Position numbers and translations under genes: made by a program | The notes under the pieces: model-generated | Told to the model about the DNA's origin: nothing | The model's input: the letters and a program-made list of their open reading frames with translations, nothing else | Database searches by the model: none | Assembly: GCF_023705585.1 (NCBI RefSeq) | Contig: NZ_BOQE01000001.1 | Location: forward strand, 857,341-881,340 | DNA from: Collibacillus ludicampi | GTDB taxonomy: Bacteria; Bacillota; Bacilli; Tumebacillales; BOQE01 | DNA length: 24,000 nucleotides | Direction: 5' to 3' | In this document: positions 505 to 22,880 of the stretch, one piece after another | How positions within the stretch are numbered: the stretch's first letter is position 1 | Layout: every line of letters begins with the position of its first letter

Positions 505-603
505 TATGAATTCCTCCTTCATCTTTTGAACTATTACATTTAATTCGTACATGAAGACTTTCGAAACGGATAAGTATCATTGGCCACTCGTCTATTTTTG
601 ATC

Positions 604-667
604 TTGAAAATGAGTGCTTGGGTGGATGTATCGCTTTGCGCTTGGGTTCGATGAAGGTCGTTCCGCC
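604..667 (-). repeat. Half copy (type-1 end plus one inner half-stem) of the palindromic element family
   Basis: TTGAAAATGAGTGCTTGGGTGGATGTATCGCTTTGCGCTTGGGTTCGATGAAGGTCGTTCCGC matches the left arm of 11000-11143 almost base for base. No partner arm follows. Confidence 0.8.
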
Positions 668-861
668 GCTAGAGGAATGTGTGGCACTGGCTATCTTCGA
701 TACAAGTAAGGAGATATGCAGGAGAATTGGGAAAATGGGAGAAAGAAGTTTCTAAAAAGGAACCGAATTTCCTCGTTTATCTTCAGAAGATTCGTTATGC
801 TTAAAATAAAGGAACACTAACAATTCGGACGTTGGGATGAATGGCAAAGAGGTGAACCGAT

Positions 862-2475: not shown

Positions 2476-2549
2476 TGCCGCCAGCGGCGCCATCAGAGGA
2501 TGAAAAGCTTCTTGTGCGGGAAGAAGTATAAGGCTATCTCAAGAAACGG

Positions 2550-6525: not shown

Positions 6526-6553
6526 GAAAAAAGAGCCGGATCGAAATCCGACT
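6526..6553 (-). terminator. Rho-independent terminator of the dehydrogenase gene
   Basis: Minus strand reads GAGTCGGAT-TTCG-ATCCGGCTC followed by TTTTTT. One internal mismatch, UUCG tetraloop. Confidence 0.7.
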
Positions 6554-6595
6554 CACATGAGTGATTTTATAAAGACGTCGAGCTTGCAATCATTG

Positions 6596-7483: not shown

Positions 7484-7708
7484 GCGATCTCCCCCTTTTT
7501 CGATTTTTTCGACTCTTTTTCTATTATACTTGAGATTGATGGGGTATCAAAATTTGTCATTGTACGAAGAGTAGTCACATGAGTAGTCCAATCTGGAGAG
7601 AGGTTGAAGTTCAGAACAAAAGCCCAACTTTATTAGGGATAAGCGCCCTTTTAGGGGATACGAGCATAGTCTGAATCGTGATCGAAATTACAAAAGGGAG
7701 GATCTCTC

Positions 7709-7921
7709 ATGAGTAAACTTGATTCAGATCGCCAGTATGGTCAATATCACCCTTATCCCCACCCATTGCCATACCCTGGTCATCATTACCCATGGTTCCA
7801 CTATCCGCACCCATTCCCGCATCCCTACTTCCATCACTTTCCTTACCCGTTCCCTCATCATGGTTATTATCCTCACTATTGGCCAACTCATCCGGGAATG
7901 CATCCGTATAGTCAACGGTAA
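7709..7921 (+). CDS. 70-aa His/Pro/Tyr-rich low-complexity protein (candidate spore-coat or metal-binding protein)
   Basis: ATG 7709 has SD AAGGGAGGA 7 nt upstream, and a strong terminator lies downstream at 8019-8062. Counted by hand: 14 His, 17 Pro and 12 Tyr of 70 residues. Confidence 0.6.
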   Translation: MSKLDSDRQYGQYHPYPHPLPYPGHHYPWFHYPHPFPHPYFHHFPYPFPHHGYYPHYWPTHPGMHPYSQR

Positions 7922-8018
7922 TCAACATTGATGATATTCATCTTTATGAAAAACTCCTAAGTCTGCACAAGTGTGCCAGCGTCACTTTTTACATGTCTTT
8001 TATATAACTAAACCTAAA

Positions 8019-9335: not shown

Positions 9336-9577
9336 ATGGATCCACTCCTTTGGTATGGATTGATCGCGGGTTCTTTGTATCCAAAATCGCATTCCAGTCC
9401 ATGGGTAGATAATTTTAGATTGGTTACTAATCATGAAAGATTTCTTAACGAGTGTTTGGGAACCTGAGAAAACGATTAACCAGAAAATTCCTAACTCTTA
9501 TTGTACCATCATATACCAAAACAGAAAAGATACTATACAAGAAATATAGTAATTTTAAAAATAATTGAGGAATTGTC

Positions 9578-9706
9578 ATGTCGCGTATTTGTATCATGTC
9601 AAACGTCTTTATTTCATTGGTATATGATGGTATTCTATTAGACAGGAAGTTTTTGGTGGAATACATGGAGATTAAAAAATGGAAGGGAGGTAGAATAGTT
9701 AAATGA
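9578..9706 (+). CDS. 42-aa micro-ORF (MSRICIMSNVFISLVYDGILLDRKFLVEYMEIKKWKGGRIVK)
   Basis: SD TGAGGA 7 nt upstream of ATG 9578. The stop overlaps the next ATG in an ATGA junction (9703-9706). No homologue recognised. Confidence 0.35.
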   Translation: MSRICIMSNVFISLVYDGILLDRKFLVEYMEIKKWKGGRIVK

Positions 9707-10032: not shown

Positions 10033-11002
10033 ATGAAAACACTCGAACGAATCAGTCAATTTGTCGGTGGAACCTTTGCAGTTTGGGTACTGCTTTTTGC
10101 AACTCTTGGTTTTTTCTTACCGAACACATTTATAACATTTAAATCCTACATCTCCCCGCTCTTAGGAATTGTAATGTTTGGAATGGGTCTTACTTTATCC
10201 GGTAGTGACTTTAAAGAGGTATTTAAGCGGCCCAAAGACGTGGCTATTGGCGTTATCGGTCATTATATTATTATGCCGCTTGTGGCTTATCTCCTTGCCA
10301 TTGGGCTTCATCTTCCGCCTGAAATCGCCATCGGCGTGATTCTGGTTGGAAGTTGCCCGAGTGGTACGGCATCCAATGTTATGACCTTTCTCGCCAAGGG
10401 GGATGTGGCGCTTGCCGTCTCAATCGCGACCGTTTCCACTCTGCTCGCACCTTTTGTAACGCCGTTTTTAATCTCCGTTTTGGCAGGTAAATGGACACCT
10501 GTCGATCCACTGGCTTTATTTAAAGACATCATTGAAATCGTCATTTTACCGATCGCGTTGGGGATCATTGTCAAAGCGTTCTTTAAAAAGCAAGCCCAGG
10601 CGAGTGTCAAAATGCTTCCGCTTGTCTCTACCTTGGCCATTGTTTTGATCATTTCTGCGGTTGTAGCCGGAAGTCACGACCGAATCTTGAAAACAGGTTT
10701 TTTAAATTTTTGCCGTTGTCATACTACATAACGTTTTAGGCTTTTTGTTAGGCTATTTCTTCACGAAACTGTTTGGTATGGAGCTACCCAAAAGAAAAGC
10801 GGTCGCATTTGAAGTCGGCATGCAAAATTCCGGGCTTGGGGTCGCACTCGCAACCGCCCACTTTCATCCTTTAACAGCCGTTCCAAGCGCTATCTTTAGC
10901 GTTTGGCACAATCTATCGGGATCGATTCTCGCAACGTTTTTTGCCAAAATGGAAGAAAACCGAGAAACAGGTATAGAAACGAGAAATAACCTGACCAAAT
11001 GA
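10033..11002 (+). pseudogene. Bile acid:sodium symporter (BASS, YocS-like) with a +1 frameshift in a homopolymer tract
   Basis: ORFs 10033..10731 and 10745..11002 together cover one BASS protein (GSCPSGTASNV ... [10 protein letters not shown]). Dropping one A of AAA 10704-10706 restores ..[22 protein letters not shown].. Confidence 0.8.
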
Positions 11003-11143
11003 CAAACTAGTGCTTGGGTGGGTGTATCGCTTTGCGCTTGGGTTCGATGAAGGTCGTCCCGCCTGGATTCTTAACAGTGGTTGCGGAACGACCTTCAACT
11101 CACCTCTGCGCTGCAAAGCGATACAACCCACCCAAAAGACACT
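11000..11143 (-). repeat. Minimal (144 bp) copy of the palindromic element family
   Basis: Terminal inverted repeats AGTGCTTGGGTGGGTGTATCGCTTTGC and GCAAAGCGATACAACCCACCCAAAAGACACT. Inner helix GAAGGTCGTCCCGC (11049-11062) / GCGGAACGACCTTC (11083-11096) around a 20-nt loop. Confidence 0.85.
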
Positions 11144-11250
11144 CGGTTGCATTAGGCAGCTTAATTCTCTCTTCCCGTACAAGAAACTTTTCATCCTCTG
11201 ATTTCGCTGATTGCGGCATGGGAGACTATTTTGAAATCGACGGAATGGGT

Positions 11251-11275
11251 GCCCTGCTGATTCAAGCAGCAGGGC
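11251..11275 (-). terminator. Terminator-like hairpin downstream of the SPFH gene
   Basis: GCCCTGCTG / CAGCAGGGC 9-bp stem lying 26 nt after the stop. The T-tract on the minus strand is weak. Confidence 0.45.
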
Positions 11276-12361: not shown

Positions 12362-12775
12362 TTATCTTCCGCGGTGTTTCGCTTTTGCTTTTTGGATTTT
12401 AATCTCGCGTTTTTTTTCTTTCAGCAATTCGCGCTGCATTTTTGAAAAGGTTTTTCTTTCTTTTTTCGCACTCTCGAACTGTAATCGGATAGCTTCTTGT
12501 GCTTTGGTTGAAATCCCCTTTTGTTTCAGCGTTTTAGCCACTTCCCTTTGAAGCCGCTTTGGGTTCAGTTTCTTCTCGCGTTTTTGCACGATCTCGATGC
12601 CATCATGACGGCTTTGTGCCATAAGGGGCAGCAACCGGTACTTGACGAAGTGGAAAACTTCCGGGTCACTTGGTTCCGTACCAAAAACATACCGGTACAC
12701 GCTCAACTTGGATTTCATCACTTGTTCGATGACTCCAACCCAAAATTGACCATCATGATATACGGTCAATTTCAC
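12362..12775 (-). CDS. yjdF: YjdF-family protein (DUF2992)
   Basis: GTG 12775 has SD GAGGAGGG 6 nt upstream, giving MKLTVYHDGQFWVGVIE..., plus a Lys/Arg-rich tail (..KIQKAKAKHRGR), as I recall for B. subtilis YjdF. The ORF-track start at 12871 adds 32 leader-encoded residues. Confidence 0.75.
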   Translation of the reverse strand: MKLTVYHDGQFWVGVIEQVMKSKLSVYRYVFGTEPSDPEVFHFVKYRLLPLMAQSRHDGIEIVQKREKKLNPKRLQREVAKTLKQKGISTKAQEAIRLQFESAKKERKTFSKMQRELLKEKKREIKIQKAKAKHRGR

Positions 12776-12900
12776 GTTGATCCCTCCTCTGAAAACACTC
12801 TGTGGAATGATGGACATCCCGAGGAGGGGAAGGTTACTGACATCGTGGTAACGATGCGCCCGGACTACCAACCGGACCGTGTTTTTTCATTCCATAATTG
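12776..12900 (-). promoter_or_regulatory. Structured 5' leader with an SD-sequestering helix (candidate yjdF-type riboswitch or other cis-regulator)
   Basis: CCCTCCTC (12821-12828, minus strand) is perfectly complementary to the SD GAGGAGGG (12782-12789). Further small helices lie upstream (for example 12841-12856). Confidence 0.45.
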
Positions 12901-13143: not shown

Positions 13144-13581
13144 ATGAACTTTGAAGTAAAAACCAAAATTAAAATATTAAAGCCAGTAAGTGATGTATTC
13201 GAAGCTATCGTAGATCCTGCAAAAATGTCCAATTATTGGTTTTCATCGGGTTCTGGAAGATTGGAACAAGGTAAGACAGTTACGTTGAGATATGATGAAT
13301 ATGATGCAAAATTGGATATAAAAGTAATTGAATACGAGGTTAATAAGAAAATTGTGTACTTGTGGTCGGCAAGTGGTGAAGAAACGGTTGTTACAATTAC
13401 ACTGAAAGAGTTAGATACTACGGGTACAATTATTGAAGTTAACGAAAAAGGTTGGAAAAAAGATGATGATTCATTAATAAGCAAATTATTAGGACAAAAA
13501 GAAGGTTGGGTTTATGTATTGACTTGTTTAAAAGCGTATCTTGAATTTGGTGTTAATTTGAGAGGAGCATTGGTATTCTAG
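13144..13581 (+). CDS. SRPBCC-superfamily protein (AHSA1/START-like, YndB-type)
   Basis: 145 aa. The N-terminal pattern ..ILKPVSDVFEAIVDPAKMSNYW.. and the C-terminal helix are typical of AHSA1-domain proteins. SD GGAGTG is upstream. The gene is visibly AT-rich. Confidence 0.7.
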   Translation: MNFEVKTKIKILKPVSDVFEAIVDPAKMSNYWFSSGSGRLEQGKTVTLRYDEYDAKLDIKVIEYEVNKKIVYLWSASGEETVVTITLKELDTTGTIIEVNEKGWKKDDDSLISKLLGQKEGWVYVLTCLKAYLEFGVNLRGALVF

Positions 13582-13659
13582 TGTTTCTCTAAATGGAGTA
13601 CAAATAAAGATCACTTATGCAATAATTTTAATCGGGAATCGATAACGTAATAAACAAAT

Positions 13660-14484: not shown

Positions 14485-15900
14485 TCAATGATGGTAGACC
14501 GGTCGAACCCCAGTCACTTTGGCCGTAAAATCATCGAGAGCCGCGAGATCTTTTTTCGAGACTTCCTTGATGCTTCTTTTTCCAAGTGCGCGAACAGAGA
14601 TTTTCATCTCTTCCATACATGAATGTAAATAATTGGCCAGGTGTAGACTGGCGAGAGCAGGGTCAAGCTTTTCTTTATGTTTCCCCGTGTAGAAAACCAT
14701 TTGTGTAGGAGGCTCCCAAGGAACCGCTTTGAACACTTGTGTATGTGCCATCGCATAGAGAACGGAAGTCCCCAAGTAAACTGCATCAGCCCCGAGAGCG
14801 AGCGCTTTCAAAAAGTGATCGGGGGTGAAGAGACCCCCGCTGACAATAAGACTGATTTGCTCCCGTTTTCCGCTCTGTTCAAGAAAGTGAACCGCACGTG
14901 ATAATGCGTATATGGTTGGCAGTCCGAAATCGTCTTGAAAAATCGGCGGGCTCTCATGTGAACCCCCTTGTCCTCCGTCAATGGCTATCACGTCCACACT
15001 TGCTTCAAGCGCAATTTGCAAGTCCCTTTCCATCCAGTTACCCGCAGCAAACTTGACACCAATCGGAATACCTTCCGTAAGCGTTCGCAACTTCTCGACT
15101 AATTTCCTGAGATCCTCTGGGTCTTGCACCTCTTCATGCCGGGAATGGAGAACGGCATCTTCTCCAGGTCGTAGATTCATGATCCGACGGGCACGCCCTT
15201 GCAATAACTCCGGTTGAATCCGCTCGGCCGCCCCTGCGATCGCACCTTGTCCGAATCGGATTTCAATCATATCCGCCTGTTTAAGAATGCTAGGATCCTT
15301 TGACCATTTTCCTGTGTGATATTGGAGAATTAAGTGTTTCGCGAGATTACGTTCTTCCGGTAGAAAGCCGCCTTTTCCCACATTGCTCGCCGTTCCAACC
15401 ATCGAGGTTCCCAATGCGAAAGCCAGTCTCGCTTGTTCGCTGACACCTACCCCATAGCCCATGGCCGATACAATTAACGGTATATCCAAAACGAGCGGCT
15501 TCTTGCTAGCGGGGCCGATCATTGTCGTCGTTTCCACAGGCGTATCTTCGGGCGTAGGAAGCTTCGCAACCTGAGCGGGAGAAAAAATCAGCCCGTCAAA
15601 GTTCAGAAACTTGCGAGGACTCCCCAGAGGCCGTTGGATAACGCTTCCCGTATGAGCACGGAGAGCATTTTCCAAAACCCATTGGGGTGACATGCGTGTG
15701 AGAGCAGAAACCAGTTCCCATACATTCTCTGCATATCTGTCCGACATGAAACGCTTGACCACACCCTTGACCATCGAAGCAAGGACAACCCTTCTCACCA
15801 TATACATCATGAATAAAAAAACGCTCAGCCCCAGAAAAACGGCAAACACTTGGATGACTATCACTTTCCATGTCGTCAAGCCAGACACTCCATTACACAT
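14485..15900 (-). CDS. FMN-binding glutamate synthase family protein (GltB FMN-domain-like, YerD-type) with an N-terminal TM anchor
   Basis: 471 aa with motifs IEIRFGQGA, IAIDGGQGGS and SGGLFTPDHFLKALALGADAVYLGT. ATG 15900 has no SD. TTG 15879, preceded by GGAG, is an alternative start. Confidence 0.85.
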   Translation of the reverse strand: MCNGVSGLTTWKVIVIQVFAVFLGLSVFLFMMYMVRRVVLASMVKGVVKRFMSDRYAENVWELVSALTRMSPQWVLENALRAHTGSVIQRPLGSPRKFLNFDGLIFSPAQVAKLPTPEDTPVETTTMIGPASKKPLVLDIPLIVSAMGYGVGVSEQARLAFALGTSMVGTASNVGKGGFLPEERNLAKHLILQYHTGKWSKDPSILKQADMIEIRFGQGAIAGAAERIQPELLQGRARRIMNLRPGEDAVLHSRHEEVQDPEDLRKLVEKLRTLTEGIPIGVKFAAGNWMERDLQIALEASVDVIAIDGGQGGSHESPPIFQDDFGLPTIYALSRAVHFLEQSGKREQISLIVSGGLFTPDHFLKALALGADAVYLGTSVLYAMAHTQVFKAVPWEPPTQMVFYTGKHKEKLDPALASLHLANYLHSCMEEMKISVRALGKRSIKEVSKKDLAALDDFTAKVTGVRPVYHH

Positions 15901-15947
15901 TTTTTATAAAATGTGTCCAGAACATGGATTGTATTCAAATGGAGATC

Positions 15948-16892
15948 TCACGCCCGATCAAAATCTTTTTTTAACCATTCGATCAGTTCCCGTTCCCGCT
16001 CTTCGTTCATTTTCTGCGAAAATTCGGGTGTCCATCGATAGAAACCCTCTCCATTCTTCTGGCCATATTTCCCCTCGTCGACCAAACGGCGCATGGTAGG
16101 CAAAGACTCTTGCTGGGTACCTAAATCGGGGAATAAGTAATTGGAAATCGAATCAAATACATCCAAGCCTCCCATGTCAGCCGACATAAACACTCCCGTT
16201 ACCGGGAGACGTCTCCCGATGCTGTAACGGACTGCCGCATCAATATCCTCTACAGTTGCAATCCCTTGTTCGAGGATATTCTGTGCCTCCCTAAACAGTG
16301 CAAACTGCAAACGATTGCCGATAGAACCCAGAATTTCTTTTTTCAAAACCACCGGTTTTTTGTTCATCTTGTGCAGTAACGCCAACGTGCGATCTACAGT
16401 AGCATCGGAAGTATATGTACCGCGAACGACTTCAACAAGTGGGATCAGATGGGCGGGATTCCAAAAATGAGTAACGATCGTTCTCTCCTTATGGACAGTA
16501 TGTAATGCGATATCAGTAGGACTGAGTCCCGATGTATTGCTCGCCAGTATTACATTCGTAGGACATTGCTCATCTAATGATCGGAACCACTCTTGTTTCA
16601 GAGCGAGATCTTCCGGTATCGCCTCAATCAAAAAGGTGGCATTTTGCACACATTCATCCAACTCGCAAGTAAATGTCACTCGCTCTTTAATCGCCTCAGA
16701 CTCAGGTGAACGGATGGCATCATAACGAAGCAGCACCTGAAGTTTCTCCGCGATTCCTTTTCGTCCCCGTTCGATATCTTCTTGATCTTGCCCCCAGACG
16801 TTCACAGACATGCCAGCCAGCGCTGCAGACAAAGCGATCGAATGTCCCATCGTTCCTGTACCCAGTACCACAAGTTTCTCTTGTTCAGTCAT
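15948..16892 (-). CDS. 3-hydroxyacyl-CoA dehydrogenase family protein (lambda-crystallin / L-carnitine-dehydrogenase-like subgroup)
   Basis: 314 aa with SD GAGGGG 7 nt upstream. Rossmann motif VVLGTGTMGHSIA and family motif HFWNPAHLIPLVEVV. Lies 47 nt upstream of the FMN protein gene, so the two are probably one operon. Confidence 0.8.
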   Translation of the reverse strand: MTEQEKLVVLGTGTMGHSIALSAALAGMSVNVWGQDQEDIERGRKGIAEKLQVLLRYDAIRSPESEAIKERVTFTCELDECVQNATFLIEAIPEDLALKQEWFRSLDEQCPTNVILASNTSGLSPTDIALHTVHKERTIVTHFWNPAHLIPLVEVVRGTYTSDATVDRTLALLHKMNKKPVVLKKEILGSIGNRLQFALFREAQNILEQGIATVEDIDAAVRYSIGRRLPVTGVFMSADMGGLDVFDSISNYLFPDLGTQQESLPTMRRLVDEGKYGQKNGEGFYRWTPEFSQKMNEERERELIEWLKKDFDRA

Positions 16893-22527: not shown

Positions 22528-22554
22528 ATCAGTCACTCCTACAGGCCGCTACTT

Positions 22555-22793
22555 TTGAAAGTTTAGTGCTTGGGTGGATGTATCGCTTTGCGCTTGGGTT
22601 CGATTATCGGGCATATGCTTTACGTTCATGCTCCGTGGAGGTCGTCTCGCTTGGAATATATTTAATTGTTGCGAGACGACCTCCAAAGTCGCTGTTTCAC
22701 GCCAAGCATATGCCCCTCACCAGCCAAAAAGGAAGCGAGACGACCTCCAAAGTCGCTTTCTTACGCAAAGCATTACGCCCACCCAAAGACACT
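22555..22793 (-). repeat. Long-form (239 bp) copy of the palindromic element family, between hisZ and hisG
   Basis: Type-1 end TTGAAAGTTTAGTGCTTGGGTGGATGTATCGCTTTGCGCTTGGGTTC. Central hairpin 22609-22715 (GGAGGTCGTCTCGC / GCGAGACGACCTCC). The 45-nt right arm is duplicated (22671-22715 and 22735-22780). Type-2 end is CGCCCACCCAAAGACACT. Confidence 0.85.
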
Positions 22794-22837
22794 ATTCACT
22801 CTTCTGATGGCCCCTCTAAAAGCATGGGTGGCAACAC

Positions 22838-22858
22838 TGAAAGTTAGTGCTTGAGCAG
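22838..22858 (-). repeat. Solo type-1 terminus fragment of the same element family
   Basis: TGAAAGTTAGTGCTTGAGCAG closely repeats TGAAAGTTTAGTGCTTGGGTGG at 22557-22578. Confidence 0.55.
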
Positions 22859-22880
22859 TTACGTTGGAAAAATTCCCACA

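Follow-up and report, generated by a model that had tools for sequence, protein, structure and literature searches.

The stretch of DNA considered here, referred to as the window, comprises 24,000 nucleotides of Collibacillus ludicampi (Alicyclobacillaceae; RefSeq assembly GCF_023705585.1, contig NZ_BOQE01000001.1, positions 857,341 to 881,340 of the forward strand). At window positions 10033-11002 (+) lies a gene of the SBF (bile-acid:Na+ symporter) family, and directly downstream of it a long palindromic hairpin unit is found at 11009-11143. This unit is one member of a previously undescribed family of hairpin repeats, of which the window holds three further copies: a truncated one at 601-694, a composite one between the genes of a sensor kinase and a response regulator at 2476-2797, and another composite one between hisZ and hisG at 22541-22865. 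The family was followed through the window and through related public contigs, with attention to its anatomy, its dispersal and the process that may have spread it.

The hairpin unit downstream of the SBF gene

The sequence of 11000-11143 is, letter for letter, that quoted in the original prediction, a first reading made from the letters of the window. There it was described as a 144-bp palindrome. The palindrome is real, but its supposed first three bases, 11000-11002, form the stop codon of the SBF gene, and the palindrome proper covers the 135 bp of 11009-11143. The 144 bp do not make a whole "minimal copy" either, because a rightward tail of 45-90 bp and a TTGAAAA leader are also conserved among copies.

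On the forward strand the unit, assigned to type A1 by its sequence, its fold and a covariance model of the unit (R1), consists of a left outer stem of 29 nt (11009-11037), a left bubble (11038-11048), a left inner arm (11049-11062), a loop (11063-11082), a right inner arm (11083-11096), a right bubble (11097-11107) and a right outer stem of 36 nt (11108-11143). The predicted fold is one hairpin with two 11-nt bubbles and an imperfect outer stem, in line with the single long hairpin with a bubble proposed earlier. The 20-nt loop and the 14-nt arms of the supposed 14-bp inner helix are present as well, but 13 of the 14 pairs are Watson-Crick and one is a C.A mismatch, which turns into G.U on the opposite strand. 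The terminal inverted repeats are imperfect and 27-31 nt long (AGTGCTTGGGTGG... / ...CCACCCAAAAGACACT). As RNA, the palindrome is predicted to fold with -73.8 kcal/mol on the forward strand (z -9.4) and -79.6 kcal/mol on the reverse strand (z -10.7), and as DNA with -42.9 kcal/mol (z -9.4); in 200 shuffles of 11000-11143 no equally good fold was obtained. The R1 model matched 11020-11129 with 95.7 bits on the forward strand versus 46.3 bits on the reverse strand.

The left end is preceded by a leader (CCAAATGACAAACT, 10995-11008, +), a diverged form of the family leader CTAY-TTTGAAAA-NN which includes the SBF stop codon. To the right, on the same strand, follow two modules: ext1 (11144-11186), an optional 43-nt module placed between the right end and ext2 and conserved in unlinked copies, and ext2 (11187-11231), a conserved tail, TTTTCATCCTCTGAT..GCGGCATGGGAGACTAT, recovered with an nhmmer profile. 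Since this right-hand tail of about 90 bp (11144-11231) is present in unlinked copies, the element extends here to about 11231. An inverted-repeat match then places the degenerate start of a second, head-to-tail left end (CTATTTTGAAATCGACGGAATGGGTG) at 11226-11251 (+).

Nested units in the window and in related contigs

HisG and the response regulator encoded in the window have 100% identity to C. ludicampi proteins. Comparisons were made on related public contigs. Joint Genome Institute (JGI) metagenome 3300077723 supplied L004, L009, L016 and L017, which represent a strain 95-99% identical to the window over the L004 overlap. L014 and L012 (JGI metagenome 3300078045) belong to a sister lineage with approximately 91-94% nucleotide identity and 89% HisG identity. 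More distant loci were provided by L010/L011 (HisG 81%), L013 from Effusibacillus lacus (HisG 79%) and L015 (regulator 79%). The R1 model was run over 131 kb of DNA and over 58 kb from the distant relatives (79-81% protein identity).

Within the window, the end motif TTGGGTGGN{2,3}GTATCGCTTTGC occurs 6 times versus 0.00 expected, and the inner-arm motif GAAGGTCGTYYCGC 9 times versus 0.05 expected. The recurrence of the same termini at other sites, all of them intergenic, had been predicted, and copies were indeed located at 601-667, at 2550-2797 (inverted), at 22548-22793 and, as a partial left end, at 22837-22858, each of them intergenic. Two of these had been regarded as long forms, that is, as merely longer copies; their extra length consists instead of homologous hairpin units nested within an outer unit.

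The composite element between the kinase and regulator genes (2476-2797, -), delimited by motif, alignment and R1, is read as ext2 (2476-2507), ext1 (2508-2549), A1 right half (2550-2610), linker (2611-2630), nested B unit (2631-2737; R1 match 2630-2738, 111.3 bits), A1 left half (2738-2784) and leader (2785-2797). By the same means, the element between hisZ and hisG (22541-22865, +) resolves into a leader (22541-22564), an A1 left half (22565-22608), a nested B unit (22609-22716; R1 match 118.6 bits), a linker (22717-22734), an A2-type right half (22735-22793), a short ext2 (22794-22836) and a partial second left end (22837-22865). In the truncated copy at 601-694 (+), positions 601-666 hold the leader, the A1 left half and its inner arm; a deletion follows, after which only the final bases of ext2 are left (about 664-686). 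A complete head-to-tail arrangement, in which a second element begins directly after ext2, is seen in L016 (5311-5400), and the partial left ends at 11226-11251 and 22837-22858 are its remnants in the window.

The building block of the family is thus a single hairpin unit of approximately 108-135 bp with an outer stem, an asymmetric bubble, a 14-bp inner stem and a loop of about 20 nt. Outer units exist in two types, which differ in the left end (A1, AGTGCTTGGGTGGRTGTATCGCTTTGCG; A2, AGTTTGGCGGGCGTATGCTTTGCG), each type having a right end that matches its left end; chimeric elements with an A1 left and an A2 right end also occur. The inner B unit, of which subtypes exist, has the layout GGGCATATGCTTKGCG, bubble, GRAGGTCGTCTCGC, loop, GCGAGACGACCTYC, AAAGTCGCT..CGCMAAGCATATGCCC. 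In an alignment of six B and two A1 units the mean column identity is 82%, which indicates that B and A1 are homologous.

An outer unit encloses from zero to three B units at its apex, always in its own orientation. The nested unit starts immediately 3' of the left inner arm of the unit that hosts it; between its own end and the right inner arm of the host unit lies a linker of 14-20 nt whose last bases are AAAGGAA. All six contiguous nested B-unit matches of the first R1 search, and likewise all half-units found by regular expression, are located within an outer unit and have the orientation of the host unit. That search returned 9 units in the 131 kb, namely the six nested B units and the three A1 units themselves, and another nested unit was later found in L016; scores were 91-122 bits on the correct strand versus 41-62 bits on the opposite one. 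The half-units are 43-64 nt long and not palindromic themselves. Left and right halves pair best at equal nesting depth (permutation test: outer stem, p = 0.0006; inner stem, p = 0.02), so that each nested unit is a coherent palindrome and not a chance stack of half-repeats.

Conservation extends beyond the palindromes. The leader, (C/T)TA(C/T) followed by (T/G)TTGAAA, precedes 8 of the 11 left ends. The ext1 module, bordered by ...AAGA(C/A)ACT direct repeats, is conserved at 2508-2549 (reverse complement) of the window, L009 1067-1112, L016 5441-5483 and L017 10245-10290, and is missing at L014 7926, L016 5311 and window 22794. By contrast with this optional module, ext2 (TTTTCATCCTCTGAT..GCGGCATGGGNGRCTAY) follows every right end; nhmmer gave 11 matches at 9 non-orthologous sites with E values from 1e-10 to 1e-4, and a solitary ext2 at L014 13578-13618. 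It contains a small hairpin of 4-5 bp about 12 nt before the CTAY junction.

Maintenance of the fold

A covariation analysis of aligned copies, which the original prediction had proposed, was carried out on eight units. The 35 consensus pairs are 94.3% paired, and compensatory changes on both sides are found at 10 pairs, versus 4.0 +/- 1.5 in column shuffles, none of 500 of which reached 10; when partner columns were slid as a control, at most 2 compensatory pairs were obtained. In the same alignment about 11 cells are of the G.U type versus 6 of the A.C type, and the two strands are a few kcal/mol apart in fold energy, the right-to-left strand being the more stable one in most cases. A preference for one RNA strand was considered and dropped, as neither the G.U/A.C counts nor the fold energies were convincing. 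With no strand clearly favoured, the pattern suits a constraint that acts on the DNA, or on the two strands alike, better than one that acts on a single RNA. The two operon copies (hisZ-hisG and kinase-regulator), if transcribed, would form mRNA hairpins with predicted fold energies of -107 to -136 kcal/mol.

Coding potential, transcription signals and mobilising genes

The family is non-coding: reading frames vary between copies, no Pfam match was obtained on the elements, and the recurring pseudo-peptides (LVLGWVYRFALGFD...) are, as had been suspected, translation artefacts of the repeat. A small conserved open reading frame (ORF) in the tail (MKSFL...) was considered and dropped, since both frames and stops vary among copies. 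The gene content of the window bears out the earlier statement that it holds no transposase.

The Rfam comparison proposed earlier produced no match on the elements, either at gathering thresholds or at E <= 10; with Rfam 15, the sole real match in the window is a yjdF riboswitch at 12794-12898. A consensus terminator scan called no whole unit, the stem being trailed by UUUU only; its lone call within an element is a 6-pair stem-loop at 22748-22731, in the his-site copy. A candidate small-RNA promoter, TTGAAA-17-TGTATC, was dropped because its -10 hexamer agrees at 3 of 6 positions and the promoter scan did not call it. An integron attC site was likewise rejected: the ends have no GTTRRRY core, copies lie in core operons (his and the two-component system) and have no cassette context, and the gene lists contain no integrase.

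Dispersal and distribution

Copies on the unlinked contigs L009, L016 and L017, together with polymorphism at two sites, uphold the core of the original prediction, that of a non-coding, non-autonomous, dispersed palindromic family. At least 17 distinct sites are known across unlinked contigs. The high copy number that had been suggested would be an extrapolation, and not a count, from a density of approximately one site per 13-35 kb in DNA that was not selected for carrying an element.

Further sites came to light through gene calls. A chimeric pseudo-peptide used as query retrieved one called ORF, P0121, which led to contig L009, and a full HMMER scan with P0121 gave nine further element-derived "hypothetical proteins". 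Seven of these element-derived ORFs fall outside the loci compared and belong to other large JGI contigs; the NCBI annotation of C. ludicampi contains one, WP_282198851.1. Those seven sites are known as pseudo-ORFs only. Two further matches of P0121, a repetitive Coregonus protein at NCBI and an unnamed 1,561-aa ENA protein, are spurious. The repeats called as proteins measure 65-207 aa (L009 502-1125, L016 5089-5622, L017 9945-10355; P0242-P0247, P0249, P0251 and P0252). The end of one 92.5-kb JGI contig (L016 1-240) falls within a repeat element, which suggests that the family breaks metagenome assemblies.

Outside the lineage, R1 found no unit in the 58 kb from distant relatives. The end motif, in a 22/23-mer form, gave 3 isolated matches in 185,579 species genomes and 4 in JGI metagenomes, all of them lacking surrounding similarity; the C. 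ludicampi genome itself is not part of the genome collection or the metagenome contigs scanned. They are regarded as chance matches. One of them, L008 1551-1590, the sole extended match to the left-end motif outside the lineage, is a chance resemblance and not a copy; it lies inside the coding sequence of a TauE/SafE-like membrane protein (..MLGGRIALQLS..). A viral scan, plasmid BLAST and phage BLAST gave no match, and a literature search returned nothing on repeats in Collibacillus.

Presence and absence between relatives

Orthologous sites differ in their content. Between hisZ and hisG the window has 344 bp with the composite element, while by annotated coordinates the two genes are separated by 5 nt in L012 and L010/L011 and overlap by 4 nt in L013. 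Between kinase and regulator the window has 331 bp versus 56 bp in L014, where the element is missing. At the same site L004 carries two nested units versus one in the window, and the element is about 15% divergent inside, whereas its flanks are 98-99% identical. Upstream of the kinase gene L014 has a full A2-type long element (7624-7966); at this orthologous site the window retains just the truncated copy at 601-694, with its A1-type left half and the end of ext2.

A three-state site was observed at window 6554-6575, 3' of a dehydrogenase gene and just before its terminator (6533-6554, -). L004 holds there an element together with a YbaK/tRNA_edit gene (15805-16606, about 800 bp), L014 ext2 only (13560-13629), and the window about 20 bp with the tail of ext2 only.

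The his insertion is flanked by a direct repeat with 8 of 9 matching positions (CATATCAGT / CACATCAGT), for which a 30 x 30-nt shuffle test, with uncertain element boundaries, gave p ~0.12. A target-site duplication of 9-16 bp at this site was therefore dropped as non-significant, and no such duplication was found at the kinase-regulator site or at the 11000 site.

Neighbouring features of the window

The SBF gene carries a 1-nt insertion in a T-run at about 10704, by which it is divided into two ORFs (10033-10731 and 10745-11002); in the JGI strain the gene is intact and encodes 322 aa (L004 20350-21318). Either the gene is a pseudogene, or the type-strain genome contains a sequencing error at this point. 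Upstream of the gene, an AT-rich region contains a 52-nt inverted repeat (9479-9530 / 9606-9657, 73% complementary) which is unrelated to the hairpin family and next to which the JGI strain has about 300 extra bp, including a called 70-aa ORF (L004 19707-19919). The riboswitch mentioned above (azaaromatic or yjdF, RF01764, -, 90.7 bits) immediately precedes a DUF2992 (yjdF-like) gene at 12362-12790 (-), which is the usual pairing. Near the start of the window, a putative ORF on the reverse strand holds a 67-nt direct repeat (271-337 / 439-505, 79% identical, spacing 168 nt); this ORF is called as 315 aa in L004 and as much shorter genes in L014.

Origin and spread of the family

The family is probably a lineage-specific, non-autonomous mosaic of non-coding hairpin repeats of the REPIN/BIME/BOX kind, dispersed by selfish spread. 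Its units would move in trans through an enzyme encoded elsewhere in the genome; their preferred target would be the apex of existing hairpins, entered in one orientation, and later recombination and palindrome deletion would yield the mosaics, the half copies and the lone ext2. As to the enzyme, there is a weak leaning towards a transposase of the HUH/Y1 type (IS200/IS605 or RAYT) that recognises folded single-stranded hairpins, because neither strand keeps the fold better than the other, nested units take one orientation only, the tetranucleotide at the junction, CTAY, is conserved, and no consistent or significant target-site duplication was found. Any effect on the host would probably be a by-product. 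A stricter version, which we consider rather improbable, is a self-targeting hairpin replicator, in which an enzyme, likely specific for single strands, inserts whole units in one orientation at the 5' edge of the apical loop.

Several observations weigh against selfish spread of this kind. No transposase or other mobilising gene was found in approximately 110 kb of Collibacillus-lineage DNA from the regional loci. Among the compared sites there is no clean pair of an empty and a filled site with an intact target; the filled and empty kinase-regulator sites also differ by about 40 bp of flank. At the his site the inserted DNA begins with an ext2 tail and ends within a second partial unit, and it resembles a fragment of a tandem array, about 1.3 units long, more than a clean product of transposition. 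The ends of the element are fuzzy and not sharply defined, left halves are often more numerous than right halves, and the linker before the right arm is no obvious displaced loop of the host unit, so that composites could come from duplication or recombination. A number of the order of 10^2 sites per 4-Mb genome is an extrapolation and not a count, and the apparent restriction of the family to C. ludicampi and its closest uncultured relatives is drawn from an exact-motif scan and a few loci.

The label of a miniature inverted-repeat transposable element (MITE), which the original prediction had used, applies at most in part: the copies have inverted ends, are small, non-coding and multi-copy and show insertion polymorphism, while no convincing duplication was found (best 8/9, p ~0.12). 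In its classical sense, a MITE would be a deletion derivative of an insertion sequence (IS) with a DDE transposase, moved by cut-and-paste through the 27-31-bp ends and leaving a target duplication of fixed length. The imperfect terminal inverted repeats, the small, non-coding and dispersed copies and the direct repeat around the hisZ-hisG insertion speak for such an origin. Nevertheless that direct repeat is non-significant and the other two tested sites are blank, conservation reaches well past the inverted repeats into the TTGAAAA leader, ext1 and ext2, and a strictly co-oriented nesting at a single position is not obviously imposed by a DDE enzyme on symmetrical ends; no related IS was seen in the roughly 110 kb of lineage DNA. 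A classical MITE is accordingly regarded as unlikely. Slightly less probable still is a cis-acting structure selected by the host, such as a 3' stabiliser, terminator, insulator, RNase site or site for a nucleoid protein, with dispersal as a secondary matter; roles of this sort have been proposed for REP/BIME elements. The very stable fold maintained by compensatory changes would suit such a role, as would the position of copies in 3' regions, between convergent genes and within two operons, the terminator-like TGAAAA ... TTTTCA frame around the hairpin and the hisG Shine-Dalgarno sequence retained directly after the element. However, no copy is called as a terminator, with only 4 U after the stem; copies face either way relative to transcription, and promoter regions hold some of them; the G.U pairs show no strand asymmetry; and close relatives have the same operons lacking the element. 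That near-identical strains gain and lose sites, and that many copies are truncated, argues against a site-specific function.

Two further explanations are given much less weight. In one of them, recombination would be the only process and transposition would play no part, the present arrangement having arisen by homologous or illegitimate recombination, tandem duplication and gene conversion among older arrays. Head-to-tail arrangements with partial second units, the chimeric A1-left/A2-right elements, the different element type at an orthologous site, the unequal numbers of left and right halves and the interior swapped between 98-99% identical strains all fit this process. By itself, however, it does not carry copies to unique, unrelated positions like the 5-nt junction of hisZ and hisG, and it leaves 17 or more unlinked intergenic sites unexplained; the depth-matched halves, moreover, imply that whole units arrived jointly. 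Recombination as the sole process is very improbable. Least credible of all are independently transcribed genes for structured non-coding RNAs, acting in trans or as ribozymes. The large conserved secondary structure with covariation speaks for them, but there is no Rfam match, promoter-like sites are not conserved within or ahead of the copies, a canonical terminator is missing, both strands fold equally well, the number of modules is highly variable, truncation is frequent and close relatives have no copies.

Comparison with known repeat systems

REPINs are hairpin doublets with compensatory changes, accompanied by singlets as decayed remnants and by ordered tandem clusters that include flanks (PMC3116915). 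REPIN and REP-BIME elements are mobilised by RAYT transposases (TnpA-REP, HUH Y1). Like them, the Collibacillus repeats are extragenic, non-coding, long imperfect hairpins with conserved ends, a more variable middle and compensatory changes, and they too have singlets that resemble decayed remnants and tandem clusters in which the flanks are included. As in BIMEs, palindromic units (here A1, A2 and B) are combined with conserved non-palindromic motifs (here leader, linker, ext1 and ext2) into a mosaic, and as in REPs a conserved tetranucleotide stands beside the unit, the CTAY of the present family being GTAG or ATAG on the opposite strand. However, there is no REP palindrome of 20-40 nt with a 5' GTAG per arm, the repeated motif being the non-palindromic half-unit of 43-64 nt, and CTAY stands at the leader instead of a REP foot; nesting in one orientation takes the place of the side-by-side, alternating arrangement of BIME units; and the host belongs to the Bacillota, with no sequence similarity to the REPINs and BIMEs of Pseudomonas and Enterobacteria.

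The BOX elements of Streptococcus pneumoniae have the structure boxA-boxB(n)-boxC, with internal boxB modules in direct tandem. They share with the present family constant outer and zero to several internal modules, intergenic positions that include operons, stable folds and a module number that varies between strains. They differ in that the internal modules of the Collibacillus family are whole palindromes, nested at the apex and homologous to the outer modules. The nearest counterparts of the family in both function and form are the REPIN/REP-BIME populations, but it belongs neither to these nor to BOX, as the defining features of both fail.

ERIC/IRU and other enterobacterial palindromic repeats with internal insertions, the Correia elements of Neisseria and bcr1 of Bacillus cereus are imperfect palindromes of approximately 100-160 bp with inverted ends, intergenic and co-transcribed with their neighbours, and ERIC has short and long forms that differ by inserts at fixed internal positions, all of which recalls the repeats described here. 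Unlike in ERIC and similar elements, the inserts of the long forms are homologous hairpin units themselves. Correia elements duplicate TA and bcr1 duplicates TTTAT at the target, whereas no defined target duplication is evident in the Collibacillus family. The IS200/IS605-derived palindrome-associated elements (PATEs) offer a further parallel, with no evident terminal duplication, conserved hairpins and an orientation-specific arrangement, and the predicted ext2 hairpin with CTAY may be reminiscent of a right end with its cleavage tetranucleotide. They differ from the present family in that no TnpA or TnpB was seen in the lineage loci and in that its ends are inverted copies and not hairpins in direct orientation. 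Against this background, the single distinctive trait of the family is the co-oriented nesting at the apex.

Significance

In practical terms, gene callers turn these repeats into "hypothetical proteins", WP_282198851.1 in the RefSeq annotation of C. ludicampi and at least nine in the JGI data, and the repeats are hypervariable markers between strains that are 98-99% identical. At the his locus, a structured region of about 340 nt is placed in the middle of the histidine operon, where any effect on expression could be measured. Co-oriented apex nesting also provides a simple and testable handle on target choice by palindromic repeats, and, should the mobilising enzyme be found, the family would become a compact model for hairpin-directed insertion. 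If the self-targeting replicator were true, it would represent a new insertion specificity for bacterial mobile DNA, giving rise to Russian-doll cruciforms of up to approximately 400 bp that the host tolerates or exploits in operons, for example by uncoupling hisZ from hisG. In broader terms, the family adds a case from the Bacillota to the intragenomic sequence populations of the REPIN/BIME/BOX type, which are best known from Proteobacteria and streptococci.

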